64,000 nucleotides of DNA, taken from IMG/VR virus record IMGVR_UViG_3300014913_000007, positions 1 through 64,000 of that record; one strand, 5' to 3'. The position numbers and the translations under genes were made by a program. Below the pieces are notes generated by a model, which was not told where the DNA came from, searched no databases, and saw only the letters and a program-made list of their open reading frames with translations. This document shows, piece by piece, positions 1,118-53,258 of the stretch (the first letter of the stretch is position 1; each line of letters starts with the position of its first letter). The stretch is from a virus.

Positions 1118-1144
1118 CTATCGTCATAATCTCAGAAAACTTTA
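1118..1144 (-). promoter_or_regulatory. sigma28-type promoter
   Basis: TAAAGTTT-N11-GACGATAG. Confidence 0.8.
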
Positions 1145-1147
1145 GCT

Positions 1148-1450
1148 TTAAATGTACTGATAGTCATCTACTACATTGTCTATTTTTAATCCAGTACCTC
1201 CGAAATCTTCTTCTCCCAATGGAACTACCTTTAACTCTTTATTATCTTCAGTAACGAATATAAAATCATTTATACTGTTATCTGGTTCAAGTATGTAGAG
1301 TATAAAAAACTCAATCAATTCTCTATTATTCCTATTAGTCCAGCCAGTACATCCTTCTCTAAATACTTCAAATAATGAAAAGCGGTCTGTCACCTCAACA
1401 TCTCTTTCAGTTAGCAACTCTACAACTTTTTCTCTAGTATATTTTTTCAT
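1148..1450 (-). CDS. hypothetical phage protein
   Basis: ORF in array, GGAG SD. Confidence 0.7.
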   Translation of the reverse strand: MKKYTREKVVELLTERDVEVTDRFSLFEVFREGCTGWTNRNNRELIEFFILYILEPDNSINDFIFVTEDNKELKVVPLGEEDFGGTGLKIDNVVDDYQYI

Positions 1451-1452
1451 AA

Positions 1453-1971
1453 TTATTTAATCTCCACTAATTTATTTGTTTTAACACTATAAACTGGATA
1501 TGGTGCTTTTCCTCCCTTAAACCATTCATTACCAAAGCAGAAAGTTTTATATCCATCCTCAACAATACTCCTTAAATGACCTGCTCCTGGCACACAGGGA
1601 GAGCATAATCCTGCATGGGTATAGTATGGAGACTCTGTTATAAAAATATCGCCGTACTCGTCCAATGCTGCGGTATATTCATGATCATCTAAGATGTTAG
1701 ATGGATTATCTGTATAACCTAATTCATGTCCATCATTAAATGATTCTGCACACTCAGAGCAAGTATATTCATTATCTGATTCTTCTGATTCTGCTAATAG
1801 TTCACCACCACATTCAGGGCAAAACGCCTCACCATACTCAGGAGTGAATTCGTTCAATGCCCATTCAATTAAATCAATATAGGGTATAACTCCATATCTA
1901 ATACCAGTCTGTATATCGATATTGGTCTTACCATGTCCATAATCAATTCCAATTCCAATTACCTGTCCCAT
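1453..1971 (-). CDS. hypothetical protein with Zn-ribbon
   Basis: CPECG...CSEC and CSPC motifs; GAGG SD. Confidence 0.75.
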   Translation of the reverse strand: MGQVIGIGIDYGHGKTNIDIQTGIRYGVIPYIDLIEWALNEFTPEYGEAFCPECGGELLAESEESDNEYTCSECAESFNDGHELGYTDNPSNILDDHEYTAALDEYGDIFITESPYYTHAGLCSPCVPGAGHLRSIVEDGYKTFCFGNEWFKGGKAPYPVYSVKTNKLVEIK

Positions 1972-1979
1972 AATTACCT

Positions 1980-2414
1980 CTAATTTTCAAGTACAATTAA
2001 AGTATCCTTCTCTGCAACATCTGAATCTACCTGCGCTACTGAGATTGTACCTGTACTAAATGCTATTTGTGTATGTTTAACATATCCAGTAAACCTGAAT
2101 ACTCCATCCTGTACCTGAAGCAGTACGCAATCTAAGTTAGGTGAATCATCTTCTGCTCTTAATTCTTCATACTCTTTAGTAACTCCTTCTTCTGTTACTT
2201 CAGTTAAATTTCCACTAACATAATCTGAGACTGCATAATCAAAAGCAGTTATTTCAAACAATCCAGAAATATCGGATTCCATTTTCATTTCTGATAGTTT
2301 ATCTGACATATACTTAATTCTATCAAGTAAATGCTTATCTATTTCCAGTTTATAGCAAATCTCTAAATCATTATATTCATCTTCTATAAATAAATTTCCA
2401 AATACTGTTACCAT
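1980..2414 (-). CDS. acidic hypothetical protein, paralogue of 7327..7731
   Basis: shared GNL.IED, LDCVLL, FRFTGY.KHT, QVD motifs. Confidence 0.8.
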   Translation of the reverse strand: MVTVFGNLFIEDEYNDLEICYKLEIDKHLLDRIKYMSDKLSEMKMESDISGLFEITAFDYAVSDYVSGNLTEVTEEGVTKEYEELRAEDDSPNLDCVLLQVQDGVFRFTGYVKHTQIAFSTGTISVAQVDSDVAEKDTLIVLEN

Positions 2415-2456
2415 AATTACCTCTTAAAATAATTAAATGTTTTTCTTACATTAATA

Positions 2457-2483
2457 GTATCGTCATTATCTGGGAAAACTTTA
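2457..2483 (-). promoter_or_regulatory. sigma28-type promoter
   Basis: TAAAGTTT-N11-GACGATAC. Confidence 0.8.
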
Positions 2484-2546
2484 GAAGTAATCCGATTATT
2501 TATTGGCATGGTTCTTGCTAGATCTAGACCCCCGGCCACAAAAAAA
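2479..2546. repeat. ~68-bp intergenic direct repeat, copy 1 (copy 2 at 4140-4206)
   Basis: CTTTAGAAGTAATCCGATTATTTATTGGCATGGTTCTTGCTAGATCTAGACCCCCGGCCACAAAAAA present at both loci. Confidence 0.95.
2503..2527 (+). promoter_or_regulatory. sigma54 -24/-12 box with TAGATC tail
   Basis: TTGGCATGGTTCTTGCTAGATCTAG, GG-N10-GC spacing. Confidence 0.75.
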
Positions 2547-2589: not shown

Positions 2590-3201
2590 TTATCTATTCA
2601 AAAATACCTTTCCATATTCTAGGTAAACATTCTCCTGTGCTTCTATATCTTCTCTTAAACACTCCTCACTCATAGCATAGTCCCACGCCTTCTCTAAGTC
2701 ACTATATAACTCAAGTGATAAGTTAGACCTGAATTCCTCTAATTCGTTCTCCAATTCCTTCAGTAACTTAAAAAGTCTAGGTGTATACCTCCTCCAGATA
2801 TTTGATTCTAAGGACAAGTCCCTAGTATTCTCATGTGAATAATGATTACCAAAATGATTAGTTAGTATGCTTGCTTCCATGCCTTCTGCTTCGATAAGTC
2901 TAATTAAGTGTCTATACTTCCCTTCTGGTAAGTTAGCGTGTTTAATGAATTCTTTCAGCTCTACGTTGGCATTAAAACTAGCTCCATCCCCTTGACTCCA
3001 AAATCCTGAGAATTGAATCTTAACATCATCCATGCCCATGCTCTCTAACTTCTCTTTCCAGTCATCTAGGGTACATTCAAAAATCCACTCACTGTCGTAC
3101 TGGCCTTTGGCTTCTCTTGCCTTTTCCAGTACCTTCTCCTGTGCTTCCTCTGTTAATTCCTCAAACTTATATGTTTCATATTTAATTGTTACTGTTTCCA
3201 T
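2590..3201 (-). CDS. acidic hypothetical phage protein
   Basis: 203-aa ORF, FSGFWSQGDGASF motif, GAGG SD, own promoter. Confidence 0.8.
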   Translation of the reverse strand: METVTIKYETYKFEELTEEAQEKVLEKAREAKGQYDSEWIFECTLDDWKEKLESMGMDDVKIQFSGFWSQGDGASFNANVELKEFIKHANLPEGKYRHLIRLIEAEGMEASILTNHFGNHYSHENTRDLSLESNIWRRYTPRLFKLLKELENELEEFRSNLSLELYSDLEKAWDYAMSEECLREDIEAQENVYLEYGKVFLNR

Positions 3202-3238: not shown

Positions 3239-3265
3239 ATATCGTCAGATTCCCAGAAAACTTTA
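3239..3265 (-). promoter_or_regulatory. sigma28-type promoter
   Basis: TAAAGTTT-N11-GACGATAT. Confidence 0.8.
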
Positions 3266-3266: not shown

Positions 3267-3803
3267 CTATTTCTTAGTAAGCTCCTCAATAGCTTCCTCT
3301 AATTCTTTCTTTGTTACCTCAATGTTTCCATGTACGATAGGTTTTTCAATTAAACATCCTTTTATATAATTCTGTAAAGCTCTAGCGTCTGATTGCATAT
3401 CATTCCACATATTCAGAATTTCCTTATCCTCCTGTGCTTCATGTACTTCACCATATATTAAATATACTACATCCTTACACTGTTCTGATTCTTTAGAAGT
3501 AGTTAATTCCTTTAGTAGTAGCTCCTCATCATCCACCTCTGAAAAATAGTCATATAGTATGTAATCTTTAACAATCTCCTCTACAGAAGGAATATTAGCC
3601 TCACTAAACTTATCTACAAAAGCTGTAGCCTTCTCTTTAGTGTTAAAGTCTGCTATACATGAAGCTAACCCTTCACTTGTTCTAAGGTACACACTGAACA
3701 TATCCGCATCTTTTTCATCACATACTGCCATACTTTCACAAGTATCGTGGTGTACTGCTTCTACTTCTATCTGTACTGTTATCTGTTTGGTATATAAACT
3801 CAT
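3267..3803 (-). CDS. hypothetical phage protein
   Basis: 178-aa ORF coupled to upstream gene. Confidence 0.75.
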   Translation of the reverse strand: MSLYTKQITVQIEVEAVHHDTCESMAVCDEKDADMFSVYLRTSEGLASCIADFNTKEKATAFVDKFSEANIPSVEEIVKDYILYDYFSEVDDEELLLKELTTSKESEQCKDVVYLIYGEVHEAQEDKEILNMWNDMQSDARALQNYIKGCLIEKPIVHGNIEVTKKELEEAIEELTKK

Positions 3804-4084
3804 AAAATATCCTCTGTTACAGTAGTCAGGTACTTATTAATAACATAGTATTCTTCTTTTTTTATTTCATCCATTGTAATTGCTTTTGCTATGATACAGC
3901 CACAATCAAACTCTGCCATGTTCTTTTCTTTGGCATCCCACCATTCTCCTTCACCTCTCCAATTCAATACTATAGCTTCTAGTACCTTATCAGCTAAATC
4001 CTTTGTTTCTTCTCTCATTAGAAAACTTGTGGTAAAGGAATACTCACCAGATGTTTCTTCAATTTTACAAAAATAATGTTTCAT
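3800..4084 (-). CDS. hypothetical phage protein
   Basis: GAGG SD and promoter upstream. Confidence 0.75.
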   Translation of the reverse strand: MKHYFCKIEETSGEYSFTTSFLMREETKDLADKVLEAIVLNWRGEGEWWDAKEKNMAEFDCGCIIAKAITMDEIKKEEYYVINKYLTTVTEDIL

Positions 4085-4117: not shown

Positions 4118-4144
4118 CTATCGTCAGATCCCAGAAATACTTTA
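4118..4144 (-). promoter_or_regulatory. sigma28-type promoter
   Basis: TAAAGTAT-N11-GACGATAG. Confidence 0.75.
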
Positions 4145-4206
4145 GAAGTAATCCGATTATTTATTGGCATGGTTCTTGCTAGATCTAGACCCCCGGCCAC
4201 AAAAAA
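4140..4206. repeat. ~68-bp intergenic direct repeat, copy 2
   Basis: matches 2479-2546. Confidence 0.95.
4164..4188 (+). promoter_or_regulatory. sigma54 -24/-12 box with TAGATC tail
   Basis: TTGGCATGGTTCTTGCTAGATCTAG. Confidence 0.75.
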
Positions 4207-4503: not shown

Positions 4504-4932
4504 TTACCAGTATAAACCATTTACCTTAACTTGCTCATAAACATCCCTCTGAAGTTCTGAATAGCCCTCATCGGTATCTAACTCATAATCACTTAGTTCT
4601 ATACCTAAGTCATCTAAATCAAGGGCATCAATTCTTAGAATATCATGTTTATCTACTTTAATTTCCTCAGCATAAAGAGACATACACTCCCCAACCTCAT
4701 TCATAATAATATCGTCTATTTCTTCACGCCTCTCTTCTAATACTGAGTCCCAATCTTTATATTGTTGATCAAAAGTTATCCAGTCCAGTTCACAACTGGC
4801 TCTAATATCACACAGGTGTACTTTCCTGTTAACATCAACCAGAAAACTAGTTACTATCTTATCTAGTTCTGGCATATCTGTCATATTCCAATATCTCTCA
4901 TGCATATGTATTAACTTAAATTCCGGTTTCAT
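4504..4932 (-). CDS. acidic hypothetical phage protein
   Basis: GAGG SD, promoter upstream. Confidence 0.75.
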   Translation of the reverse strand: MKPEFKLIHMHERYWNMTDMPELDKIVTSFLVDVNRKVHLCDIRASCELDWITFDQQYKDWDSVLEERREEIDDIIMNEVGECMSLYAEEIKVDKHDILRIDALDLDDLGIELSDYELDTDEGYSELQRDVYEQVKVNGLYW

Positions 4933-4965: not shown

Positions 4966-4992
4966 ATATCGTCGATATCTCAGAAAACTTTA
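4966..4992 (-). promoter_or_regulatory. sigma28-type promoter
   Basis: TAAAGTTT-N11-GACGATAT. Confidence 0.8.
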
Positions 4993-5230: not shown

Positions 5231-5422
5231 TTACCTCTTGATTAGTTTATTAACCTTTGCAAACTTCTCAGGAAATCCTGGGAGACTATGCTTCAAAAAT
5301 TTATTCTCTTTTATGATACCTATTGCTTCCTTTAGTGCTTCTTTTTCAGTATTTGCTTTAACATTAGGAATCATTATATTATTGTGAGATCCTTGAGAAA
5401 TCATTACATTATATTTATTCAT
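5231..5422 (-). CDS. small protein, DpnD/PcfM-like paralogue
   Basis: MNKYNVMI...NVKANTEKEALKEA. Confidence 0.6.
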   Translation of the reverse strand: MNKYNVMISQGSHNNIMIPNVKANTEKEALKEAIGIIKENKFLKHSLPGFPEKFAKVNKLIKR

Positions 5423-5466: not shown

Positions 5467-5493
5467 TTATCGTCAATATATTAGAAAACTTTA
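5467..5493 (-). promoter_or_regulatory. sigma28-type promoter
   Basis: TAAAGTTT-N11-GACGATAA. Confidence 0.8.
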
Positions 5494-5540: not shown

Positions 5541-5563
5541 TAGATCTAGCAATAAACGTGCCA
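5541..5563 (-). promoter_or_regulatory. sigma54 -24/-12 box with TAGATC tail
   Basis: TGGCACGTTTATTGCTAGATCTA on minus strand. Confidence 0.75.
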
Positions 5564-6232: not shown

Positions 6233-6538
6233 TTAGCCCTTCAGACTCTTTATAAAATGAACACAGCACTCGTCCTCACTTACCTCTAAATCCTTCCTGA
6301 AGCCTCCCTGACCGCAAGCATCACATTCATAATAGATATGAAGCTTCATATCATCATCTACCAGACATACTTGAAAATCATCATTAACTAGGTAGACACT
6401 ACCTGACAGTTGATTAAAGTGGGGGCGTACTCCTTCGCTAGAGAATCCATCTGGTAAACCATTCTCTTTCATAGCTGTTAGGATGCTTATTAACTCCTCT
6501 AACTCTGTGTATCTATAATCCTCTAAGTTACTTGTCAT
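6233..6538 (-). CDS. hypothetical protein with CxxC motif
   Basis: GAGG SD, promoter upstream. Confidence 0.75.
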   Translation of the reverse strand: MTSNLEDYRYTELEELISILTAMKENGLPDGFSSEGVRPHFNQLSGSVYLVNDDFQVCLVDDDMKLHIYYECDACGQGGFRKDLEVSEDECCVHFIKSLKG

Positions 6539-6599: not shown

Positions 6600-6626
6600 A
6601 TATCGACAGAATCTTGGAAAACTTTA
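6600..6626 (-). promoter_or_regulatory. sigma28-type promoter
   Basis: TAAAGTTT-N11-GTCGATAT. Confidence 0.8.
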
Positions 6627-6646: not shown

Positions 6647-6671
6647 CTAGATCTAGCAAATACCATGCCAA
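6647..6671 (-). promoter_or_regulatory. sigma54 -24/-12 box with TAGATC tail
   Basis: TTGGCATGGTATTTGCTAGATCTAG on minus strand. Confidence 0.75.
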
Positions 6672-6709: not shown

Positions 6710-7126
6710 TTAATTAGAACGATAAATTACAAATCCGTCTAGTTCCTCGCATCCTCCATCATAAGAGTTAAGGAAGTGTCCAAGTCCATCGGCTGCTATA
6801 GCATCCTCTACAAGCTCCTCGAAGCTATCCCCTACCATTGACATAATAGCGTCATTAGCCCTCTCACATTGAGGCTGTAAGGCTTCTATAACCTCCTCCC
6901 CGACTCCATCAGGAAGGTAATCAACAATAAAATAAGCATTGAAAGCCCACAAGCTCTCTTTAATGTAAGCTGTAGCCTGTTCCTCTGCTTCCTCATCAGT
7001 AAGTACTGTATACTCTCCATTGTCTGTATCAAATACATTAACTGCATCGGATTCTGTTATATCAAAGGTTTCCAGATCCTCGCCCTCATCCTTGAAGAAT
7101 TTTTTAAGTATTTCTAAATTAGTCAT
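6710..7126 (-). CDS. highly acidic hypothetical protein
   Basis: D/E-rich, GHFLNSYDG motif; GAGG SD. Confidence 0.8.
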   Translation of the reverse strand: MTNLEILKKFFKDEGEDLETFDITESDAVNVFDTDNGEYTVLTDEEAEEQATAYIKESLWAFNAYFIVDYLPDGVGEEVIEALQPQCERANDAIMSMVGDSFEELVEDAIAADGLGHFLNSYDGGCEELDGFVIYRSN

Positions 7127-7291: not shown

Positions 7292-7318
7292 ATATCGCCA
7301 GATTCTCAAAATACTTTA
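7292..7318 (-). promoter_or_regulatory. sigma28-type promoter
   Basis: TAAAGTAT-N11-GGCGATAT. Confidence 0.7.
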
Positions 7319-7946: not shown

Positions 7947-8174
7947 TTAATCCTCTTTAATACTTAAAATTTCCTGTAACTCTCTCAATATCCCATACCT
8001 TTCAGATACACTACTAGCAAAATTAGAACTGAATGGATTACCATGAAACTGATTTTTTCTAGCTCTCTTAATAGTCATTTCTAGGGTATCTATAATAGCT
8101 TTACATTCATACACATATTGCTTCAATTCCTGTTTATAACTCATTTCTACATATTCTTTAATTCTATTAGCCAT
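7947..8174 (-). CDS. hypothetical phage protein
   Basis: first gene of leftward array; weaker promoter TCAAGTAA-N11-GCCGATAT at 8205-8231. Confidence 0.7.
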   Translation of the reverse strand: MANRIKEYVEMSYKQELKQYVYECKAIIDTLEMTIKRARKNQFHGNPFSSNFASSVSERYGILRELQEILSIKED

Positions 8175-8249
8175 AATTCCACTTTAAATTTGGTTACACC
8201 TATAATATCGGCTGTATTCCATATTACTTGAGAACTAATCTAATTATTT

Positions 8250-8331: not shown

Positions 8332-8358
8332 TTAAGTTTTCAAATAAGATGCCGATAC
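8332..8358 (+). promoter_or_regulatory. sigma28-type promoter
   Basis: TTAAGTTT-N11-GCCGATAC. Confidence 0.7.
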
Positions 8359-9779: not shown

Positions 9780-9806
9780 GTATCGGCAGTTTGCCAGGAA
9801 ACTTTA
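9780..9806 (-). promoter_or_regulatory. sigma28-type promoter
   Basis: TAAAGTTT-N11-GCCGATAC. Confidence 0.8.
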
Positions 9807-10186: not shown

Positions 10187-10234
10187 ATATACAGTATCGG
10201 CATCGGGCGGGAATAACTTTAGTTATTTCTTTTT

Positions 10235-11200: not shown

Positions 11201-11227
11201 GTATCGGCACAATTCACATAAACTTTA
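11201..11227 (-). promoter_or_regulatory. sigma28-type promoter
   Basis: TAAAGTTT-N11-GCCGATAC. Confidence 0.8.
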
Positions 11228-12819: not shown

Positions 12820-12922
12820 AAGTTAATATCTCCTGGTACTAGTATCGGCATATTCTCAGAAAACTTTAGCTTTATTATATATCCCATAGTTAATTAAGTA
12901 TATTAAGTGTACCATAGTAATA

Positions 12923-13745: not shown

Positions 13746-13772
13746 TAAAGTTATTTAAAAATATGCCGATAT
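13746..13772 (+). promoter_or_regulatory. sigma28-type promoter
   Basis: TAAAGTTA-N11-GCCGATAT. Confidence 0.8.
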
Positions 13773-14899: not shown

Positions 14900-15027
14900 A
14901 CTAGGTATATCGGCAGGACCCCAAAAAACTTTAGGAATTTATTATATGTACCATAATTAAATTGACATGTAAACATAATAGAGGTACCACAGTGATATGA
15001 GAAGAACAAGGCGAGAGTGAGATTAAA

Positions 15028-15549: not shown

Positions 15550-15758
15550 TTAATTAATTAATTAATTATACTACCTATCTAATCATGTAAAAATATAATA
15601 ACCTACCAATGTTATAATAGTAGTCAGAATCATACTAACCACACCTGCTTAATTTGTTCTGCTCCATTCATACTATACTTCTCCCTTAGTATACGTTTAT
15701 TATACTTATGTGTCAAATTAAAGCTAAAGTTTTTATAGAATCTGCCGATATACTATAT

Positions 15759-16519: not shown

Positions 16520-16642
16520 CCTCTTCTCCTTAAGTTAATTTATCTACTTACAATAAAGTACAAATTAGTAAGTATATCAAGATATTATGTTTTTTTACTA
16601 AATAAGCTAAAGTCTTTTTGAAATCTTGTCGATAGTATATTT

Positions 16643-17832: not shown

Positions 17833-17873
17833 ATAAGTATTATCGACCAAATTTCAAAAAACTTAAACCTTAT

Positions 17874-18351: not shown

Positions 18352-18428
18352 CTATCGTCAGTATTTCAGAAAACTTTAGTAAAAAATAAAAAAACAAAAC
18401 TAAAGTCTATTTAGCAAGTTGCCGATAT
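18352..18428. promoter_or_regulatory. divergent pair of sigma28-type promoters
   Basis: minus TAAAGTTT-N11-GACGATAG (18352-18378); plus TAAAGTCT-N12-GCCGATAT (18401-18428). Confidence 0.75.
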
Positions 18429-20627: not shown

Positions 20628-20654
20628 TTATCGACTATTTTTAGGAAAACTTTA
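20628..20654 (-). promoter_or_regulatory. sigma28-type promoter
   Basis: TAAAGTTT-N11-GTCGATAA. Confidence 0.8.
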
Positions 20655-24150: not shown

Positions 24151-24311
24151 TATTATTAGCTCCTTTAAAAGATTTATTAAACTCTAAAGATATAATACCT
24201 TATTTTTGATTAAGTGTCCATAGTAATAGCAGAAAAAAATTCAGAATTAGCTAAAGTATTTCTAAAAACTGACGATAATAACTATAGTGTTATAGCTTAT
24301 TAGGAGAGATT

Positions 24312-25407: not shown

Positions 25408-25489
25408 ACTTATATAAAATATACAAATTTAGCTAAAGTTTTCTGAGGATCTGACGATACTATACATATAACAATTATAAGGAGAATTT

Positions 25490-28584: not shown

Positions 28585-28643
28585 CTAAAGCTTATGGCCA
28601 GTTTTGTCGATATACTAATTAGTAAACAGTTTATGGAGATACT

Positions 28644-30088: not shown

Positions 30089-30165
30089 ATATCGTCATAT
30101 TTTCAGAAAACTTTAGTAGAAAAATAATTAAATACTTCTAAAGTTTTTTAATAACCAGCCGATAA
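30089..30165. promoter_or_regulatory. divergent pair of sigma28-type promoters
   Basis: minus 30089-30115; plus TAAAGTTT-N11-GCCGATAA at 30139-30165, an exact FliA consensus. Confidence 0.85.
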
Positions 30166-30562: not shown

Positions 30563-30625
30563 AAAGTAAAAAAATAGCTAAAGTTTTTAAGGAATCTTCC
30601 GATAAATTATACAGGAGATAAAACT

Positions 30626-33080: not shown

Positions 33081-33126
33081 TTAAAATAAAGCTAAAGTTT
33101 TATTATAAAGTGACGATATTACTATT

Positions 33127-35887: not shown

Positions 35888-35915
35888 TAAAGTTTTGTGA
35901 TATACTGGTCGATAC
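35888..35915 (+). promoter_or_regulatory. sigma28-type promoter of rtcB
   Basis: TAAAGTTT-N12-GTCGATAC. Confidence 0.7.
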
Positions 35916-38040: not shown

Positions 38041-38115
38041 AAGTATAGTATCGACAGCTTTGAAAAAAAACTTTAGATGTTTGTAAAAATTAATTTAATG
38101 ATGTATACTAAAAGT

Positions 38116-38397: not shown

Positions 38398-38436
38398 ATA
38401 GCTAAAGCTTTAGAGGGTCAGCGACGATATACTGGT

Positions 38437-42908: not shown

Positions 42909-43047
42909 AAGTATAAAACCTAATAAATACATATAACTAAGTATAAACAAAATAAATAAATTAATTACATTATTTACCTAAAGTTTTCCAAGATTCTGTC
43001 GATAATACTATTAAGCGAAACAAACAACTTTAAGGAGTTTAATAGTA

Positions 43048-43836: not shown

Positions 43837-43863
43837 TTTACTATTTTAGGAAGATATCTTAAA

Positions 43864-45468: not shown

Positions 45469-45501
45469 ATTGAATAATAACTTATTACTCAGGAGTATAC
45501 T

Positions 45502-46650
45502 ATGTCCAACTTTTCAGCGCCCGTAGTAGAATTCACTATTGAAAAACACCCCAATGCCGACTTACTCTCTATAGCACACGTAGAAGGATGGCAATGTATT
45601 GTAAAGACTGCAGATTTTAAAAATGAAACATTAGGTGTATATGTACCCTTAGACGCTGTAGCAGATAAGGATCATCCTCTACTTGACTTCATGAACGGAA
45701 AGAAGGTAAAAACTATAAAGCTTAGAAAAGTAATCTCTCAAGGTATCTTACTTCCATTGTCCACTGTGGAAAAGTTCGTAAGAAGTAAGGGGTACCAGGA
45801 GACCCTCCAGGTAGGAGATGATTTACATACACTTCTAGAGCTTAAAAAGTGGGAGCCTGTATTTAAGCCTCAAGGACTAAATGTCTCTGGTGGTAGTGAG
45901 GCTTACCTAGAATCTCCTGGATGGATGGGTAAGTATACTGACATAGAAAATTGGAATAATCACCCTAATACAATAAAAGAGGGAGAAATAGTGAGTATTA
46001 CCGAAAAGTTACACGGATCCAGTGCAAGATACGGAATCGTGGATGGTGAATTCTACGTAGGTTCTAGGAATAGAATTTTAAGGTTAGATCCATACATCTC
46101 AAGAATGGATCAACGTAAATGGGATTCACGACCTTTCTTTCAAAGATTCAAGGATTTTATATTGAGAAAGAAAGTTAAACTTACTACACCTAGGGAAACA
46201 GTCTGGACTAAGATAGCTAGAAAACAAGGAATACGTAGTAAACTAAGGTATTTATCCTTTAACTTTGCGGAAGGTGGTAATGTAGCTATTTACGGTGAAA
46301 TAGTTGGTCCTGGGGTACAGGATCTTGAATACGGACTAGAGGAAGTAGATCTATACCTTTACGATATAAGAATTGAAGGTAGGAGTGGAGATAAATACAT
46401 AAGTCCTCCAGAGTTTAGGGAAATGGCAGGTAATATCAAGCTAAAAACTGTACCACTATTGAAGGAAGGCCCTTTCGAATTAGCTGATTTGGAGCTTAGG
46501 AAGGGTAAAGACACTATTAATACTAAGCATGTGCGAGAAGGTATCGTTATAGAGCCTACAAAGCTTCAGTTTGACAAGGGATTAGGTAGGGTAATACTTA
46601 AGAGGGTATCAGAAAATTACCTTCTTAGAAAGAATGGGACTGACTATTAA
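45502..46650 (+). CDS. ATP-dependent RNA ligase (Rnl5/DraRnl-like)
   Basis: HPNAD.L N-terminal OB domain, TEKLHGSS, GEIVG, REGIV, LK.VS..YL. Confidence 0.88.
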   Translation: MSNFSAPVVEFTIEKHPNADLLSIAHVEGWQCIVKTADFKNETLGVYVPLDAVADKDHPLLDFMNGKKVKTIKLRKVISQGILLPLSTVEKFVRSKGYQETLQVGDDLHTLLELKKWEPVFKPQGLNVSGGSEAYLESPGWMGKYTDIENWNNHPNTIKEGEIVSITEKLHGSSARYGIVDGEFYVGSRNRILRLDPYISRMDQRKWDSRPFFQRFKDFILRKKVKLTTPRETVWTKIARKQGIRSKLRYLSFNFAEGGNVAIYGEIVGPGVQDLEYGLEEVDLYLYDIRIEGRSGDKYISPPEFREMAGNIKLKTVPLLKEGPFELADLELRKGKDTINTKHVREGIVIEPTKLQFDKGLGRVILKRVSENYLLRKNGTDY

Positions 46651-46946
46651 TGACTGATAAAAAGATACCACTAATCTATGGACATAATTCAGTAGGTGTT
46701 GACAGAGGTATAGCCATAAGAATTAGAACTGAATCAGATTACATATCTAAGCTGTGTAAGATGTTTGAGCAGAACTTTGATGCTAGAACTAACCAACTAA
46801 TAAGTGCTTATAATAAAGTAGAGAATATTAAGGATAAACTTGAAGAATTGAAAAGATTACTTAAGACTGGAGCACCTCAAAAGGATATAGATAGTCTTGT
46901 AAGTAATTTACGTGCTAATATTAAAGATGCAGAGGACCTAATATAA
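46650..46946 (+). CDS. hypothetical phage protein
   Basis: coupled ORF. Confidence 0.7.
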   Translation: MTDKKIPLIYGHNSVGVDRGIAIRIRTESDYISKLCKMFEQNFDARTNQLISAYNKVENIKDKLEELKRLLKTGAPQKDIDSLVSNLRANIKDAEDLI

Positions 46947-47248
46947 TGAGTGACAACGGATATAAAAAAGAAAAGCTGGACTATAGTTCTTTAGCCAGTA
47001 AAGCCTTCCACAATAAAGATGATGGAGCATTATTCAAAGAAATGCGTATACTTATAGAGAGTAGTAATAAACTTGACAAGTCAAAAATGGGAGAATTTGA
47101 GCAGGTTGAAATAGATAAGCACTTTATAGATTTACTTCAAAACGTCTTCATACCTAGATTACTTGAGAATAATGAACTAGTTACAGATAAATGTGCTGGT
47201 GACCTTTCTTGCTTCATACATGAACTATTTGACGAATTTAACAAATAA
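46946..47248 (+). CDS. hypothetical phage protein
   Basis: coupled ORF. Confidence 0.7.
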   Translation: MSDNGYKKEKLDYSSLASKAFHNKDDGALFKEMRILIESSNKLDKSKMGEFEQVEIDKHFIDLLQNVFIPRLLENNELVTDKCAGDLSCFIHELFDEFNK

Positions 47249-47390
47249 TTACTTGCTATTTCCTTAAAATATTGATATACTTATAATAGGTTATGATTTA
47301 ACTAATTTATTTTAAATTAGATGATGCGGATTGGACTATTTTAAATAGGAGACAAGCAATATAGAAGACAGGAGTTAATTATAAATTAAC

Positions 47391-48488
47391 GTGATCAAAA
47401 CAGATACTATAACTAAAACACCTAAAAAGTCAAAAAAATCAACTACTAAAACAAAAAGCAAAACAAAACCAACTAAAAAAGTAACTAAATCTACTAAGAA
47501 AACTGATTATAAATTTGTAAATTACTTTCAATCAGAACCTCAACTAGACGAAATAACACATAAATCTGACCCAGAAGATATCCTTAATGCTTATGAAAGA
47601 ATTATATGGGTTACAGCTAAAAAACACTACAAAATGGGAAGAACATCTACCGAACTAGAGGATTTAATCGCTCAAGGTCAATTAGGTGTGTGTGAAGCTA
47701 TAAAAAGATACAAAAACCCAAACACTAGACCAAGATATAAATTTCACATGCTATGTTTATATAATATACGTGATTATATCTTTAAGTATTGTATCCGTAA
47801 TGTAAATCAATTAAAAACTCCTGTTTACATTCAAAGAGAACTAATGCATGTAGCTCAAATATTTCAATTAATGAATAACCAAACAGTGGCAGAAGCTATC
47901 TTAAAGAGAGAAGGTCCGTCTACTGAAAGTGAAATAATAGCATTCATCTATGATGAAGATGAAAGATTGCCTTTAAAATCAAAAACTTTTATAAAGAAGC
48001 AGATTAATAAAAAAGTAAATAAAAAAGAATTCGAACAAATATATAATGGAATTATAAGTCATGAATTAGGAAGTAGACACTCCTATGTAAAAAATAATTT
48101 AAGTGATGTTGGGAAAATACTACATATTAAAGAAAAAATTTGGTACACTTTTAAAAGTAATAATATGAAATATGAAAGAGGAATTAAACTTATCCTCTCT
48201 GCTAAACAATCTCAAGACTCATTAGATGCTGCAATACACTCACCCATACCAAAGGAAGTAATAGAACAAAACGTAGCACAAAAACAATTAATAGATCATG
48301 GATCTAAGATATGTGGTAAATTAAACTTTAGAATACTATTTGAAAATAAGTGCATGGATATGAACTATGCAGAAATATCTAAAACACACAATATTAAAAA
48401 AAACATGGTAACGGATATAATCAAAAAATCTATAAAATTATTGCAAAAAGATCCAGTGTTCCAAGAAATGTTTAAGGAGCTATTTTAA
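47391..48488 (+). CDS. sigma70-family RNA polymerase sigma factor
   Basis: region 2 (EDLIAQGQLGVCEAIKRY...KF...IR) and region 4 HTH (YAEISK....V..I....IK.L). Confidence 0.8.
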   Translation: MIKTDTITKTPKKSKKSTTKTKSKTKPTKKVTKSTKKTDYKFVNYFQSEPQLDEITHKSDPEDILNAYERIIWVTAKKHYKMGRTSTELEDLIAQGQLGVCEAIKRYKNPNTRPRYKFHMLCLYNIRDYIFKYCIRNVNQLKTPVYIQRELMHVAQIFQLMNNQTVAEAILKREGPSTESEIIAFIYDEDERLPLKSKTFIKKQINKKVNKKEFEQIYNGIISHELGSRHSYVKNNLSDVGKILHIKEKIWYTFKSNNMKYERGIKLILSAKQSQDSLDAAIHSPIPKEVIEQNVAQKQLIDHGSKICGKLNFRILFENKCMDMNYAEISKTHNIKKNMVTDIIKKSIKLLQKDPVFQEMFKELF

Positions 48489-49507
48489 TGACAGTGACTA
48501 TATTAGAGGTTGGAGATCCAGCTATTCCTGTAGTAAATGCGGATTACCTAGATCCAGTAACCGACACTGAAATGACCTTCCCAACTCAAGGTATAGTTGG
48601 TACAGTATTAAAAAGTGAAACTTATGGTAATTATGTAGAAAGTGATGAACCTATCTATCAATATCTATTAACTTTTGACCCTCCCGTCGAGACGACAGCA
48701 GATGTAGTCACAGCCGACGATGATGGAATAGAAACTTCTAACCAGCAGCTATTTACAGCATCTGAAATATGGTTTTCAGATGTGGACTTAGGATTATCGG
48801 ATGAAGTAGACCCTTTCGAATTGGATAGTCAGGCTATTCAAAATACAATAGATGAAGGTAAACAGAGGTCCACAGCTAATTTATCTACAGTTCAAAGTAT
48901 AAGTGCATCTGTAGGGCAGGAGGATGTAGTAAATACTTCTGATTATGGAGGGCCAGATATATTGGCCTCTTCAGATACATTAACTGCCTTAGTTGGAACA
49001 TTAGATAATATTGAGGATGTAAATGGGAAAACAAGTGATGAAATAGACAACCAAGCTTACAAATATGAGAAAGAAGCTAGCAGTGTTGCAGACAACTCCG
49101 ATATCTTTGCTGAGTATGTAGATAATTTATACTCACAGAGGCAAGTGGAGCAAGAAAAGGAGGATGAGAGACATCGATATTCTGAGCAAGGTGCAGAACA
49201 GCAACAACAAGCAGACGTAGAAGATGCTCAAAACTCGAAGGAATATTATGATGCACACATAGACTTAGGACATTTGGAAAATCCTTTCACACTAACTGAA
49301 AATTTTGATGAGTATAACCTATCAGAGGAGGCTGAAGAGACTCTACTAGATTCCATTGAGGAAGTAGTTAATAATCTAAATAGTAGCTTATTAGGACCCG
49401 ATGATCCAGCTCCTACACTTTTTACAATAGAAAGAACTACTAGCACTGTACAACCAGAACCAGAATCAACTAGTTACCCTACATCTCCAGAAGAAGCAGA
49501 AGAATAG
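48488..49507 (+). CDS. very acidic hypothetical protein
   Basis: 339-aa ORF coupled to sigma gene. Confidence 0.75.
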   Translation: MTVTILEVGDPAIPVVNADYLDPVTDTEMTFPTQGIVGTVLKSETYGNYVESDEPIYQYLLTFDPPVETTADVVTADDDGIETSNQQLFTASEIWFSDVDLGLSDEVDPFELDSQAIQNTIDEGKQRSTANLSTVQSISASVGQEDVVNTSDYGGPDILASSDTLTALVGTLDNIEDVNGKTSDEIDNQAYKYEKEASSVADNSDIFAEYVDNLYSQRQVEQEKEDERHRYSEQGAEQQQQADVEDAQNSKEYYDAHIDLGHLENPFTLTENFDEYNLSEEAEETLLDSIEEVVNNLNSSLLGPDDPAPTLFTIERTTSTVQPEPESTSYPTSPEEAEE

Positions 49508-49564
49508 TCATTCTATTTTGTAAAAAAAATTAAAGTTATACATAATAAATGTCGATACTAACGT

Positions 49565-50536
49565 ATGGACATAATAAAGAACATACAAGTACCGACTGGA
49601 AACATACTTATAGTATCTGGAGATAAAGGAAACTTAGAATTCCTATCTATTGGGGATTACGGAAAAGAAGCCAATTTGAAGTGTGACGCTTTGGGACTAA
49701 CTAGGGAAATAGGTAAGGTCCAACACGTTGAAATGTTACCACTATCTGAAAAGTGGGTAATAACTGTGTCAACTCAATATGGTTGCTCGATGAACTGTAC
49801 ATTTTGTGATGTACCTAAGGTTGGTCCTGGTATAAATGTGACTCTCGATGATCTTATCCAACAAATATCACTAGGTTTAGGGCTACATCCTGAAGTGAAA
49901 AGTGGGAAAAGATTGAACGTTCACTATGCCAGGATGGGGGAACCTACCTTTAATCCTGAAGTTCTAAGATCAGCCTATGCATTACAACTATTACTAAAGG
50001 ATTTTGATACTGTTCACCCAGTTGTATCCACTATGATGCCCAAAAATAATAAATTCTTAAAGAAATTTCTAAATGAGTGGATGTATATAAAGAATGAAAT
50101 TTTTCAGGGGGAGGCTGGCCTACAGTTGAGTTTAAATAGTACCTGTGAGCAAGAAAGAAAACTAATGTTCTCTGGTAATTCTTTAAGTCTATCAGATATT
50201 TCAGATGTAGTTTCAGCTTATAGACCTAAAGGTAGAAAGATTACACTAAATTTTGCTGTTGCAGACTACACTATAGATCCGAGTGTACTATTGAAATATT
50301 TTGATCCTAAATACTTTATAATAAAACTTACACCTATGCATAAAACTCATACTGCCTTAAAGAACAGTATAAAAACTAATGGAGATTACACAACTTTTTA
50401 TCCATATAAACAACACGAAAAAACACTTAAGTCTGTTGGATATGATGTATTAGTATTTATAGCATCTGTAGAAGAGGACCTAGGTAGAATAACTTGTGGT
50501 AATGCTATACTATCAGGATCTACTCCAGATTACTAA
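49565..50536 (+). CDS. RlmN/Cfr-like radical SAM RNA methyltransferase, leaderless
   Basis: STQYGCSMNCTFC, MGEP, LSLNS, C-terminal CG; promoter at 49531-49558. Confidence 0.8.
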   Translation: MDIIKNIQVPTGNILIVSGDKGNLEFLSIGDYGKEANLKCDALGLTREIGKVQHVEMLPLSEKWVITVSTQYGCSMNCTFCDVPKVGPGINVTLDDLIQQISLGLGLHPEVKSGKRLNVHYARMGEPTFNPEVLRSAYALQLLLKDFDTVHPVVSTMMPKNNKFLKKFLNEWMYIKNEIFQGEAGLQLSLNSTCEQERKLMFSGNSLSLSDISDVVSAYRPKGRKITLNFAVADYTIDPSVLLKYFDPKYFIIKLTPMHKTHTALKNSIKTNGDYTTFYPYKQHEKTLKSVGYDVLVFIASVEEDLGRITCGNAILSGSTPDY

Positions 50537-50589
50537 AAAAAGAGGAAGAAATTTCTTTCTCCCTCTTAAATACCTTGCCTTTTTTAAGA

Positions 50590-51459
50590 CTAGAACTTTT
50601 TAATAGATGTTCTCTTCCATTTATTTGTCTCGACTGCCACATAAATAAAGTCATCATCAAGAACCAAAGATCCTGAGATTCCTGTATCTGTTTCTGAGGC
50701 TGGAACTGAACCACCCTCTAACACTGTTAAACCTTCAACAACAAGATCACCTGTCACGGCGAGATTTCCACCTATATAACCTGCTTGATTACCAATAATT
50801 CCACCTGGAACATTATCAGCAAACAAAGTAGCGACAGCTATGTCATCTGCTAAATTACTTCCTACAGATACATCTCTCTCAACTTTGCAAGACATAATAT
50901 AAGGGGCAGCTCCAGCACTGGTAAATTCAGTTACTGGAATTGTAAATGAACATAGAGTTAATTCATCCTGGTCTGCAGCCCCTACTGAAAGAGTCTGAGT
51001 CTTAGATAATACTAAGGCTCCTGCTGATGGATCATCACCTAGTTCAAAAATGTCATAAGTTAAATCAAATTTAACGGATGCTGGGCCATTTGCTTTAGGA
51101 GCGTAGAACATTCTAACCTGGATATCAGCTGCTGGCTGAGCGGGTACCGAAAATGAAAATCTAAAAGATGTATCAACAGTATCCTCCATAATAATAACGT
51201 CTAAATGACCTAAAGTATCTCCAACCGTACCACTAACATTAGAAACGTCATCAATCATTACGATACCACTGGCTACTGAATAGTCAATACCCGACAGTTC
51301 GTTATCGATTCCTTCTAATATAGTCTGTACGTCACCACCTGAAACTATGGTTAAAGTAGAATCATCTACCTCAACTCCTGATGCAGCTAGAACTTCCTCT
51401 GCCCAATCACTTCCTGTCCAACGTACTGCACGTCTTTGATTAGCTGTAAAATTAATCAT
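50590..51459 (-). CDS. probable virion structural protein
   Basis: G/S/T/V-rich, GNLAVTGDLVVEG and D.DFIYVAV..N.WKR tail-fibre-like motifs. Confidence 0.55.
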   Translation of the reverse strand: MINFTANQRRAVRWTGSDWAEEVLAASGVEVDDSTLTIVSGGDVQTILEGIDNELSGIDYSVASGIVMIDDVSNVSGTVGDTLGHLDVIIMEDTVDTSFRFSFSVPAQPAADIQVRMFYAPKANGPASVKFDLTYDIFELGDDPSAGALVLSKTQTLSVGAADQDELTLCSFTIPVTEFTSAGAAPYIMSCKVERDVSVGSNLADDIAVATLFADNVPGGIIGNQAGYIGGNLAVTGDLVVEGLTVLEGGSVPASETDTGISGSLVLDDDFIYVAVETNKWKRTSIKKF

Positions 51460-51654
51460 AGAATTTATACCTCATGCATGTTTTTTACTAAAGCTTATAG
51501 TAATAAGTAAAAATAGAGCTATTTCATACTTATCAAAGGTTATATAGTACTAAAATAACTTTATAATTTCTAGATAATTGCTTCCTATACAAAAATATGC
51601 TACAATATACTTAAGGAGCAATATCAAGTACATAAGTACCTGATACAACTAACT

Positions 51655-52176
51655 ATGCCTAAAATAGAAGGAATATATCTCCGTAAGGACTTAAAAGAGT
51701 ATATTACAGAATCTTTTGTAAAAAGATACTCTATTAATTTAAATAATTGGATAGAACCTTTTGCCTACTGGGATCAGTATAATCAAAGTGTACTAAGTAA
51801 TGGATCTGTTCCTGATGGTACGTATGTATTACTTGGTAACGTAAAATATCCAAGCGTAAATAAACTGTCTTTTCATAATATCTATCAGTTTAATGTTGTT
51901 AGATTATTAGGAAGTGATGTCACTTTCTCTGGGAACTTTAATGAATACGTAGGTTTATCTAAATCAGTTCCACTGAGACCAGTGTTTCCTCTATTTAAGC
52001 TAGATCAAGCACGTTCCTTCAATAAGGCGAGAAATGTATTTATAAGAGAGTTAAACAAACCTTTGACTCATTTAGAATTAAATGCTAAGATAGAACAAGC
52101 AAAACCAGGATCTATAACGGATAAATTATATAGATTAAGATTAGCTTTAGAAACCGATATACTTAAGGAGAAATAA
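51655..52176 (+). CDS. hypothetical phage protein
   Basis: ORF track. Confidence 0.7.
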   Translation: MPKIEGIYLRKDLKEYITESFVKRYSINLNNWIEPFAYWDQYNQSVLSNGSVPDGTYVLLGNVKYPSVNKLSFHNIYQFNVVRLLGSDVTFSGNFNEYVGLSKSVPLRPVFPLFKLDQARSFNKARNVFIRELNKPLTHLELNAKIEQAKPGSITDKLYRLRLALETDILKEK

Positions 52177-52178
52177 CA

Positions 52179-52418
52179 ATGGCAACAGATGTAGAAGTTT
52201 TAACAGTAGGTGTTTCAGTTGAGAGTCCTACTTTTGATAGTGATTTAGCACTTGCTATACAAACTGCTATACTAGATTTAGGATCACCTTTTGATACTTC
52301 ATTTGATATAGTTTCAATTACGCCCCTTCCAGGAGGAGGAAGAGCTAAGATAGCGGGGGATTCTAATGAAGCAAAAACTGTTAAATTACAAAGATATACA
52401 GTAATAGTACAGGCTTAA
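52179..52418 (+). CDS. hypothetical phage protein
   Basis: AAGGAG SD. Confidence 0.7.
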   Translation: MATDVEVLTVGVSVESPTFDSDLALAIQTAILDLGSPFDTSFDIVSITPLPGGGRAKIAGDSNEAKTVKLQRYTVIVQA

Positions 52419-53041
52419 AGACTATCTACATATTCTTGTACTGTGATGTAGGGAAATGGGTATGTAATTCCCTTACTATATGCCCATTTTTCTAAAGCTT
52501 CCTCGGAGTTTAGACCTTTCTTAGAACAATTAACTACTCTACTTACCGGAACTAACATTATTCCATTACTAGTTAGTACATATTCTAATTGAAAGGCATC
52601 CTTAGCCCTGTGATTATATCCTTGAAGAGGTACTTTAGAGTAGGCACATTTCCAATCATATCTTTCTAATAAGGTACAAACATCCATATTATCGAATACA
52701 ATGTTTTCAGTGCTCATTTGCTTGTAGAACTTCTTATTCTTAAATCCTGTAGATTCTTTACCTGAATGCGATAAGTTCCACTGGTCATTGTAAAGTCTGT
52801 GATTGATGGAAAGTCTTCTATAACAAGACCTACATAATCCTTTAGCCCAATGTCTGTATTTTTCAAAAGAGTTTCTTGTTTTGCACAGGGAACAACAAAC
52901 AGCTGAATTACTGTTCCAAGGTCCCTCACAGTAAAAGTCACCATGAAAGTATTTCTCTCTCTCCGACATATCTACACTATTATTCACTTTCCACCTCCCA
53001 GTGAGTCTTCCTAATCTATTTCTTCTTGCGACATCTTCCAT
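52415..53041 (-). CDS. Zn-finger / degenerate HNH-like protein
   Basis: CSLC...HWAKGLCRSCY; CAYS...N..K. Confidence 0.55.
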   Translation of the reverse strand: MEDVARRNRLGRLTGRWKVNNSVDMSEREKYFHGDFYCEGPWNSNSAVCCSLCKTRNSFEKYRHWAKGLCRSCYRRLSINHRLYNDQWNLSHSGKESTGFKNKKFYKQMSTENIVFDNMDVCTLLERYDWKCAYSKVPLQGYNHRAKDAFQLEYVLTSNGIMLVPVSRVVNCSKKGLNSEEALEKWAYSKGITYPFPYITVQEYVDSL

Positions 53042-53258
53042 TCAAAATTATCTATTGTTGCATTATTATATCTATTATCCATACATATACCATAGTACAG
53101 ACTGTGGGACATAATAAAAAAATGTAGTCGCAAAAGTGAAAAAGTCCTAGTATTTTTATGTAAAATGAATAACTATAATAGGTTATAATATACCTACTAA
53201 ATTAACTTATTACATAAATATACCTAAAGTTATTTAAAAATATGCCGATATACTAGAT

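Follow-up and report, generated by a model that had tools for sequence, protein, structure and literature searches.

Thirty-five repeated sites in the 64,000-nucleotide window analyzed here (positions 1 to 64,000 of the virus record IMGVR_UViG_3300014913_000007) are supported as sigma-28 (FliA/SigD)-type transcription promoters, predicted to form the main promoter class of an accessory and RNA-repair region. The initial annotation had proposed that such promoters drive the genes of this region, and this proposal is supported by where the sites lie and how they are oriented, by their constant distance to start codons and by their conservation in relatives. The evidence leans slightly toward host sigma-28 as the factor that reads them.

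Sequence and distribution of the sites

The motif was recovered at 35/35 of the starts listed in the initial annotation, whose coordinates for minus-strand sites are 1 nt smaller than the lowest position of the motif. Exact copies of TAAAGTTT-N11/12-GNCGATA numbered 20, compared to 0 in 100 dinucleotide shuffles. The whole-genome motif search suggested earlier was run with a two-block weight matrix built from the sites. A scan of the whole 153,389-bp contig, which is only ~78% complete, returned 38 matches at a threshold of ≥14 bits, against 0-4 in shuffles. Scores of at least 19 bits were reached by 36 of these 38, and the array proved to be confined to 1-53.3 kb (35 sites) plus one site at 153176(+), at the far contig end. 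Two matches were left out of the site count: the one at 65979 scored 16.2 bits, and the one at 107402, with 20.6 bits and a spacing of 20, lies within a called ORF.

The consensus of the 36 sites reads (a)gC-TAAAG-TTTT-yt...T-G-n-CGATA-n-T. Compared to the -35 element TAAA(GTTT), the T, A, A and G are invariant and the second base is A in 33/36 sites, with TTTT following TAAAG in 30-34/36. Compared to the -10 element (GC)CGATA(A), CGATA is invariant and 35/36 sites have a G two bases before it, whereas only 14/36 have the C of GCC and only 7/36 the terminal A. The sigma-28 consensus in its E. coli geometry is TAAAGTTT-n11-GCCGATAA, with 21 nt from the T of TAAAG to the C of CGATA (PMC2859248). 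This distance is 21 nt in 28/36 sites and 22 nt in 8/36; the gap (11 nt between the octamers, 15 between TAAA and GCCGATAA) is thus canonical in the former and one longer in the latter. The site at 30139, marked as exact in the initial annotation, is identical to the E. coli consensus.

Predicted sigma-28-type promoters of the window (coordinates, strand, matrix score and gene downstream; leaders and leaderless starts are predicted):
1119..1144, minus: 30.1 bits; ORF 901-1083, 27-nt leader with GAGG
2458..2483, minus: 30.1 bits; ORF 1980-2414, 35-nt leader; a divergent sigma54-type box, 2504(+), lies 20 nt upstream
3240..3265, minus: 26.3 bits; ORF 2590-3201, 30-nt leader
4119..4144, minus: 27.3 bits; ORF 3800-4084, 26-nt leader; sigma54-type box at 4165(+)
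4967..4992, minus: 27.3 bits; ORF 4504-4932, 26-nt leader
5468..5493, minus: 26.3 bits; ORF 5231-5422, 37-nt leader
6601..6626, minus: 29.7 bits; ORF 6233-6538, 54-nt leader
7293..7318, minus: 24.9 bits; 42-nt leader, 39-codon ORF, then ORF 6710-7126
8206..8231, minus: weak, TCAAG -35, 19.1 bits; ORF 7947-8174, 23-nt leader
8332..8357, plus: TTAAG -35, 27.4 bits; no ORF of at least 30 aa within 200 nt
9781..9806, minus: leaderless, 27.4 bits; ORF 9500-9772, ATG exactly 8 nt past CGATA
10195..10221, minus: leaderless, 29.0 bits, spacing +1; ORF 9860-10186, ATG 8 nt past CGATA
11202..11227, minus: leaderless, 28.0 bits; ATG 11193, 8 nt past CGATA
12843..12868, minus: 31.3 bits; ORF 12589-12819, 15-nt leader with AGGAG
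13746..13771, plus: leaderless, cassette copy 1, 29.0 bits; ATG 13780, 8 nt past CGATA
14908..14933, minus: leaderless, 31.3 bits; ORF 14633-14899, ATG 8 nt past CGATA
15725..15750, plus: 31.3 bits; ORF 15875-16060, 116-nt leader
16608..16634, plus: leaderless, 26.9 bits; ATG 16643, 8 nt past CGATA
17841..17866, minus: weak, TTAAG, leaderless, 19.2 bits; 203-aa ORF, ATG 17832, 8 nt past CGATA
18353..18378, minus: 30.1 bits; ORF 17874-18140, ~200-nt leader
18401..18427, plus: divergent partner of 18378, 25.1 bits; no ORF of at least 30 aa starting within 200 nt
20629..20654, minus: RuvB-like ATPase gene, 26.6 bits; ORF 19376-20572 (RuvB_N/RuvB_C), 48-nt leader
24252..24277, plus: 27.3 bits; ORF 24312-24713, 26-nt leader with AGGAG
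25434..25459, plus: 30.1 bits; ORF 25490-25798, 22-nt leader
28586..28612, plus: 23.4 bits; ORF 28644-28856, 23-nt leader
30090..30115, minus: back to back with 30139, 30.1 bits; 11-nt leader, 51-codon ORF
30139..30164, plus: leaderless, exact E. coli consensus; ATG 30173, 8 nt past CGATA
30579..30604, plus: 25.6 bits; ORF 30626-30928, 13-nt leader with AGGAG
33093..33118, plus: leaderless, 30.1 bits; ATG 33127, 8 nt past CGATA
35888..35914, plus: rtcB, 26.9 bits; RtcB 35946-37133 (Pfam 5e-100), 23-nt leader
38049..38075, minus: leaderless, 29.7 bits; ORF 37336-38040, ATG 38040, 8 nt past CGATA
38403..38429, plus: CCA-adding enzyme gene (PolyA_pol/HD domains), leaderless, 24.2 bits; ATG 38437, 7 nt past CGATA
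42979..43004, plus: heads operon 43048-49507 (hybrid kinase, RNA ligase, sigma), 29.7 bits; 35-nt leader
49531..49557, plus: leaderless, 23.6 bits; Radical-SAM-like ORF 49565-50536, ATG 49565, 7 nt past CGATA
53225..53250, plus: leaderless, cassette copy 2, 29.0 bits; ATG 53259, 8 nt past CGATA

Evidence for promoter function

The sites are intergenic throughout, except for 11202..11227, which falls inside a longer ORF call (10942-11502) that is probably over-extended, and each is oriented toward the next gene; a clear downstream ORF is missing at two of them (8332 and 18401). An ATG follows CGATA at exactly 8 nt in 11 window sites and at 7 nt in two, against ~0.65 expected per single offset. 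This implies leaderless mRNAs at 13 window sites, since the predicted start falls on the first base of the start codon or, in two cases, 1 nt beyond it. Other sites have leaders of 11-54 nt, plus 116 and ~200 nt at two of them, with a Shine-Dalgarno sequence in most; the ~200-nt leader had no Rfam match and a fold z of -0.38. A pyrimidine-purine step, with T at +12 in 30/36 and a purine at +13 in 34/36, falls at this same position even at sites lacking the ATG, and a matching T/purine signature follows CGATA in the 260-kb relative G001. The phage's own sigma70-type promoters display the matching geometry, with the ATG 6 nt past the -10 hexamer. In three duplicated gene cassettes (13746, 53225 and 153176), sequence identity begins exactly at the -35 box.

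The search for the motif in relatives, also suggested earlier, revealed ~50 such sites in G001, which has 58 proteins in common with this phage and keeps the sites over a block of small, mostly non-homologous genes. Its -10 is GCCGATA (G in 31/49, C in 40/49), and the preferred spacing (21 in this phage versus 22 in G001) and the fixed extended -10 base (TGn versus GC) differ between the two. That the repeats are operator, recombination or packaging-related sites instead of promoters, as might be suggested by their repetition and by the near identity of some across 35-40 nt, is highly improbable in view of their strict co-orientation with genes, their two boxes with a variable spacer, the start codons at a fixed distance of 7-8 nt, and the finding that in a relative whose downstream genes are unrelated just the boxes are conserved. 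Judged by gene content only, this fast-evolving stretch of accessory and RNA-repair genes resembles an early region; transcription start position and timing are those that we infer from the sequence.

Class 3 flagellar promoters are the targets of sigma-28 (named FliA in E. coli and Salmonella and SigD in Bacillus), and their transcripts begin about 6-8 nt past the -10 octamer. The array resembles them in its -35 box, its CGATA core with an upstream G, its spacing and its predicted start a few bases downstream. It differs from them by its location in a phage, in front of non-flagellar genes and at a density of 35 in 53 kb, by an extended -10 with a free position -1 and a fixed T-G two to three bases upstream, and by the many sites feeding predicted leaderless mRNAs.

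Host sigma-28 as the probable reader of the array

The initial annotation offered two readers, host FliA or a phage sigma converged on its specificity; we consider host sigma-28 the more likely reader, with only slightly better than even confidence. It is favored because both boxes and their spacing match the sigma-28 consensus, because arrays of this kind are also present in unrelated phages, of which two are complete and have no detectable sigma, and because the sigma-54 boxes of the lineage would be readable only by a host factor. These similar arrays occur in phages having 0-3 proteins in common with this one. The two complete phages (each with a completeness rating of 100%), G004 of 169 kb and G005 of 87.6 kb, the latter with terminal repeats, yielded 0 matches to four sigma profiles or T7-type RNA polymerase, although such profiles can miss very divergent factors; the promoter class is thus not found only together with a phage's sigma, as it would be for the SPO1 gp28 type. 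We found no published description of such phage arrays. Sigma-54 -24/-12 boxes number 8 in the array region of this phage (0.2 expected) and 5 in that of G001 (0.4 expected), and neither genome has an rpoN homologue, which suggests that the lineage draws on at least one alternative sigma factor of its host.

The GCCGATA of G001 with its one extra spacer base also corresponds to the geometry of Bdellovibrio FliA promoters. The attack-phase regulon of Bdellovibrio bacteriovorus FliA carries TTAAG-N16-CCGATA on 92/140 mapped promoters (PMC3627812). It is comparable to the present array in using sigma-28-type promoters for a life-stage program that reaches well past the flagellar genes, and in the N16-CCGATA geometry shared with G001, but it resides on a bacterial chromosome; a link between this phage and Bdellovibrionota was looked for and none was shown.

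Polymerase with a sigma-28-type factor would bind CTAAAGTTT at -35 and TGnCGATAnT at -10, GATAnT occupying -12 to -7, and would start transcription 9 nt past the last A of CGATA. If the factor is host sigma-28, the block would fire only in cells whose flagellar or motile-phase program is on, and the early program of the phage would probably be tied to the host motility sigma factor. Against this reader, the array makes up the dominant class of phage-specific promoters, reliance on a minor, anti-sigma-gated host sigma would be risky for a lytic phage, and the phage encodes a sigma of its own; this reading also presupposes FliA in the host.

The phage sigma and other possible readers

The phage sigma noted earlier at 47391 is real:
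47391..48488, plus: divergent sigma-70-family sigma factor gene, start codon uncertain (phrog_351 1.4e-9; TIGR02937)
47253..47281, plus: predicted sigma70-type extended -10 promoter of the sigma gene, TTGCTA-N17(TGA)-TATACT

Its product is a divergent sigma-70-family member with regions 2 and 4, as indicated by the profile matches (TIGR02937 covers residues 62-353 at 2e-8, with a score below the curated cut-offs) and by a structure model predicting a three-domain sigma fold, for which the Foldseek matches are full-length sigma chains. An identity as FliA was rejected (16.9 bits on FliA_WhiG, TIGR02479, against a cut-off of 189.6; 19.1 bits for the G001 orthologue), and its best 60 PDB profile matches include SigA, RpoD and RpoS chains and none of the FliA class, SigA/RpoD being the best.

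That this sigma reads the array, with a specificity either acquired by convergence on sigma-28 or kept from it, is plausible but less likely than reading by host sigma-28. Host sigma70 would then transcribe the sigma gene from TTGCTA-N17-TATACT and the new holoenzyme would fire the ~36 sites as a delayed-early/middle class, with positive feedback through the operon headed by the 42979 site, which also contains the sigma gene. Consistent with this, every relative found has the sigma gene with the motif nearby, and predicted sigma70-like extended -10 promoters precede it in three lineages (this phage, G001 and L020), which fits the classical cascade of host sigma70, phage sigma and phage-specific promoters. 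The 50-kb small-gene block of G001 is almost without sigma70-type promoters, and control of a large class by one early gene would be a tidy design. The spacing and extended -10 differences between this phage and G001 could reflect co-evolution with their sigmas, which are 44% identical. Finally, residues reading DNA in regions 2.4 and 4.2 differ from those of sigma70, so that a specificity other than TTGACA/TATAAT is expected.

On the other side, specific FliA similarity is lacking, so that convergence would be needed to explain the exact agreement with the sigma-28 consensus in boxes and spacing, and similar arrays occur in unrelated phages with no detectable sigma. In L021, the sigma gene follows at 36 nt a ruvB-like gene that has an array-type site as its promoter, and no sigma70 promoter is evident ahead of the sigma gene, which poses a bootstrap problem. 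Moreover, T(G/A)TACTATA, the third enriched motif, found in the late region, is a candidate target class of the phage sigma. With host sigma-28 reading the array, the primary-sigma-like phage sigma, made from its sigma70-type promoter, would serve such another class. Phage sigmas such as SPO1 gp28 and gp33/34, T4 gp55 and phiEco32 gp36 define middle or late promoter classes, and the promoters that they read are not known to resemble any host class. The present phage is similar in its divergent sigma-70-family gene with a predicted host-type promoter, but the class proposed for it coincides with a host class and is also found in sigma-less phages.

Two successive readers, host sigma-28 first and the phage sigma later, or an unrecognized phage protein outside the sigma-70 family directing polymerase, would reconcile sigma-less with sigma-bearing phages and account for conservation in spacer and flanks beyond the sigma-28 core (TTTTCTGAGAATCTG, C before TAAAG, T after CGATAn) and for the TAATC...GATTA palindromes and sigma-54 boxes adjoining several sites. 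We regard this as unlikely, as a single reader would be more economical and extended conservation can also arise from cassette duplication or selection for promoter strength.

The dense early-promoter arrays of large lytic phages, such as the T4 early promoters and the SPO1 host-takeover module, are read by the host primary sigma (sigma70/sigmaA). The array described here is similar to them in having about one promoter per small fast-evolving gene, an extended consensus and shuffling promoter-gene cassettes, but its consensus belongs to an alternative sigma.

An array of sigma-28-type sites in a large phage genome

The source contig, of which the window is the first 64 kb, is linear and 153,389 bp long (~33% GC; 78% complete by CheckV). 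It carries genes for a DNA polymerase of family A, a DnaB-like helicase and a ribonucleotide reductase, and its minus strand has a long structural block. Window genes include those for RtcB, a CCA-adding enzyme, an RNA ligase, a hybrid histidine kinase, a RuvB-like ATPase, an intein-bearing helicase, a ClpB-like ATPase, thymidylate synthase and ribosomal protein S2. Among cultured phages it has no close relative: none was matched by the window in blastn, and none has a DNA polymerase more than 25% identical to that of the present phage. The ResIII-type helicase (20702-23242, minus strand) is split by an intein with Hint and LAGLIDADG homing-endonuclease domains. The S2 protein (42024-42908), whose gene is also present in the relatives G001 and L020 described below, carries ~40 additional N-terminal residues and is 39-44% identical to bacterial S2.

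An initial annotation had counted some 35 copies of the flagellar sigma-28 (FliA/SigD) promoter consensus in the first ~53 kb, and the motif is present at 35 of 35. The strict pattern TAAAGTTT-N11/12-GNCGATA was found at 20 places, as compared with none in 100 shuffles. By scanning the whole contig with two position matrices derived from the sites, we obtained 36 matches of at least 19 bits. One of them, at 153176 (+), is 200 bp short of the opposite contig end, and the other 35 are within 1-53.3 kb; shuffled genomes gave 0-4 matches at a 14-bit threshold. Matches at 65979 (16.2 bits) and 107402 (20.6 bits; spacing 20, within a called ORF) were left out of the site count. The consensus of the sites is (a)gC-TAAAG-TTTT-yt...T-G-n-CGATA-n-T, where the T of TAAAG (-35 box) and the C of CGATA (-10 box) are 21 nt apart in 28 sites and 22 nt apart in the other 8. 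The 21-nt distance is exactly that of sigma-28 promoters in E. coli, TAAAGTTT-n11-GCCGATAA (PMC2859248), and the site at 30139 is letter for letter the E. coli consensus.

Gene starts downstream of the sites

The location of these sites in front of genes, as first proposed, was borne out: all strong sites point to the next gene on the same strand and all but one lie between genes, the exception falling within an ORF that was probably called too long. At 11 window sites an ATG lies exactly 8 nt 3' of CGATA and opens an ORF of 75-234 codons, and at 38403 and 49531 it lies 7 nt 3' of CGATA; by chance ~0.65 sites would have an ATG at any single offset. The remaining sites mostly have leaders of 11-54 nt, with GAGG or AGGAG ahead of the ATG in most. 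Long leaders follow 15725 (116 nt) and 18378 (~200 nt), and no clear ORF lies downstream of 8332 and 18401. With or without an ATG, T is found 8 nt past CGATA in 30 of the 36 sites, followed by a purine in 34 of 36, a pyrimidine-purine step of the kind that typically marks start sites. The purine falls at +1 when GATAnT is taken as the -12 to -7 hexamer. Judged by their sequence, the array sites are sigma-28-type promoters.

The canonical sigma70-type promoters of the phage (TTGACx-N17-TAnnnT), whose extended -10 version occurs 11 times against 1 expected, display the same geometry, with an ATG 6 nt past the hexamer in several cases. Leaderless mRNAs would therefore be common to both promoter classes.

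Sigma70-type promoters in which an ATG follows the -10 hexamer at 6 nt
Window: 12132, 12923, 63822
Contig: 79896, 85354, 89865, 90714

A promoter-plus-gene cassette, whose product carries repeats of the type PEICLEAVKxxGxALxYVKNQT, is present in three copies. These are unrelated upstream and identical from the C before TAAAG on into the coding region, indicating that the duplicated functional unit starts at the -35 box.

Copies of the promoter-plus-gene cassette
Window 13746-14007
Window 53225-53684
Contig 153176-153389, cut by the contig end

Between the 18378 promoter and ORF 17874-18140 lies a G-rich untranslated leader of ~200 nt (18141-18344, minus strand). Its fold is no better than that of shuffles (z = -0.38) and it has no Rfam match, so that nothing points to a structured RNA; no Rfam family was found in the window.

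Similar arrays in related and unrelated phages

Searching with the sigma protein of the phage led to no relatives other than G001 (260 kb, 95% complete), a fragment of a near-identical genome, and the shorter metagenomic lineages L020 and L021/L022. G001 has 58 proteins in common with the present phage, in a syntenic core, but hardly any of its small left-arm genes. Its array comprises 49 matches to TAAAG-N17-CGATA, where the reversed control gave 1-2. They fall into clusters at 5-57 kb and at the opposite end of the contig, and have the consensus C-TAAAG-TT...GCCGATA and the pyrimidine-purine step at the same distance. One leaderless site each was seen in L020 and L021, in the fetched flank. 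The boxes are therefore conserved over a changing set of served genes, both large genomes having arrays but hardly any left-arm small genes in common; in the early-promoter arrays of large phages, likewise, boxes persist and the genes served change.

A pattern scan of IMG/VR followed by a loose rescan uncovered further arrays.

Further array-bearing viral contigs
G004: 169 kb, 100% complete; 19 sites against 1 in the control
G005: 87.6 kb, terminal repeats, 100% complete; 9 sites against 0
G006: 137 kb; 11 sites against 2
G003 and G007: arrays on fragments

G004, G005 and G006 have only 0-3 proteins in common with the present phage. In G004 and G005, the two examined, the sites lie directly 5' of a Shine-Dalgarno sequence plus ATG, and profile searches of both gave no match to TIGR02937, phrog_351, TIGR02479, Sigma70_r2 or T7-type RNA polymerase. 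G006 does have a sigma protein, different from that of the present phage; the profile match (1501-2193 of L149, G006:C1:114681-118373) crosses one in-frame TAA, which could reflect two genes, a sequencing error or a recoded stop. The IMG/VR pattern matches L037, L109, L110, L116 and L128 were rejected as not sigma-28-like, since in them CGATAA falls within the spacer of a TTGACA...TATACT promoter. The literature searched yielded no account of a lytic phage with promoters read by sigma-28.

Candidate readers of the array and clues to the host

The phage sigma noted earlier at 47391 (ORF 47391-48488, plus strand) proved to be a genuine but very divergent sigma-70-family protein (phrog_351, 1.4e-9; TIGR02937 over residues 62-353, 2e-8). 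Its AlphaFold model aligns along its length to full-length sigma chains, in a fold search by which sigma classes are not separable. The family is tiny, with six close representatives among 1.84 billion proteins. The protein is not FliA-like (TIGR02479, 16.9 bits against a cut-off of 189.6), and a profile of six family members matches SigA/RpoD/RpoS region 2 (7e-9), its best 60 matches including no sigma-28 chain. We found no FliA orthologue in the present phage, G001, G004, G005 or G006.

Predicted sigma70-type extended -10 promoters directly upstream of the sigma gene
Present phage: TTGCTA-N17-TATACT
G001: TTGCAT-N17-TAATAT; the gene opens a divergent unit
L020: TTGCAC-N17-TATATT

In L021 the sigma gene has no evident sigma70 promoter and sits behind a ruvB-like gene driven by a sigma-28-type site. 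The start of a 339-aa ORF (48488-49507; no Pfam or PHROG match) overlaps the sigma-gene stop, and an ORF of 265-334 aa occupies the same position in G001, L020 and L021; its product may be a partner or modulator of the phage sigma.

Eight exact sigma-54 -24/-12 boxes (TGGCAY-N5-TTGCT) lie at 2.5-11.3 kb, against 0.2 expected, 14-70 nt 5' of sigma-28-type sites, some being divergent and antisense-pointing. G001 has five against 0.4 expected, with the same core and different flanks, and no rpoN homologue was found in either genome. If they work, these boxes could be read by a host factor only, and the lineage would already depend on a host alternative sigma.

Sigma-54 boxes, exact TGGCAY-N5-TTGCT followed by AGATC
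2504-2519, plus strand
4165-4180, plus strand
5548-5563, minus strand
6655-6670, minus strand
8251-8266, plus strand
8297-8312, minus strand
8522-8537, plus strand
11261-11276, minus strand

The replication and late region contains most copies of a third enriched upstream motif, which in some cases stands alongside TTGACx at -35 and is a candidate target of the phage sigma.

Third upstream motif
Present phage, TGTACTATA, contig, minus strand unless paired: 70127, 71955, 80469, 89845, 145951, 151372, 153068
G001, (TTTAAA)TATACTATA: 68630, 71548, 72642, 147488, 180834, 225267

On these sequence grounds the balance tips slightly towards host sigma-28 as the reader of the array. The sigma-28 consensus is matched in both boxes and in spacing; arrays occur in G004 and G005, which have no detectable sigma, and in G006, which has a different one, so that bacterial sigma-28 is the common denominator. 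The sigma-54 boxes of two genomes without rpoN argue in the same direction, and plausibly the third motif gives the phage sigma another job, which would favour host reading. That the phage sigma itself reads the array is less likely, though still plausible. A classical cascade from host sigma70 to phage sigma to phage promoters would fit the conserved sigma70-type promoter of the sigma gene, as well as the small-gene block of G001, nearly devoid of sigma70-type promoters. The present phage and G001 also differ in preferred spacing and in the fixed extended -10 base, as co-evolving sigma/promoter pairs would. Host sigma-28s also vary in this way (the Bdellovibrio sigma-28-type promoters are TTAAG-N16-CCGATA; PMC3627812), and the phage sigma would have had to converge on both boxes and the spacing, since its region 2 resembles that of primary sigmas. 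Dual reading, or reading by some other factor, is improbable, and it is scarcely credible that sites so placed in front of genes are not promoters.

For a lytic phage to have dense sigma-28-type arrays together with leaderless starts and sigma-54 boxes is a new use of a known kind of promoter. Large lytic phages are thought to start infection through the host primary sigma or through their own polymerase or sigma. We give about even chances to a broader picture in which this lineage of large lytic phages wires its whole accessory/early programme to the host flagellar sigma cascade, through dozens of sigma-28 promoters, many starting leaderless mRNAs at the start codon, beside sigma-54 boxes. 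The programme would run only in motile or free-swimming-phase cells, the phage's own sigma would be kept for later genes, and unrelated phages would have reached the same solution independently. Infection success would then depend on the physiological state of the host, on whether it swims or is sessile and whether it is in attack or growth phase. Resistance through fliA or flgM changes would be predicted, and the arrays would offer sigma-28 promoters of natural origin, compact and strong, with leaderless starts at defined positions. Were the phage sigma the reader instead, it would be a primary-like sigma with sigma-28 specificity, informative on the evolution of promoter specificity.

An imperfect palindrome, AATAATCnAATTnGATTATT, adjoins several array promoters and may be an operator. 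In the form TAATC-N-AATT-N-GATTA it is not enriched in 124 Bdellovibrionota genomes, where it occurs in 3 places only. TGTACTAT is modestly enriched (23 against ~10 expected) and is a candidate late promoter.

Palindromes in the window
AATAATCnAATTnGATTATT: 5502, 5525, 7261, 10631, 10705, 10732, 10838
TAATCCGATTA, the short form: 2488, 4149, 20595

As to the host, Atlas taxa were uninformative, homologues of the hybrid kinase (at most 45% identity) are scattered over all phyla, and S2 is 39-44% identical to its counterparts in Bdellovibrionota and Gammaproteobacteria alike. The radical-SAM ORF has its best match in a Bacteroides phage. The nearest terminase match of G005 is a Silvanigrella phage, in which no sigma-28-type array motif was found. 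Shine-Dalgarno use, canonical sigma70 promoters and the sigma-54 and sigma-28 boxes would all be compatible with a flagellated, RpoN-bearing bacterium.
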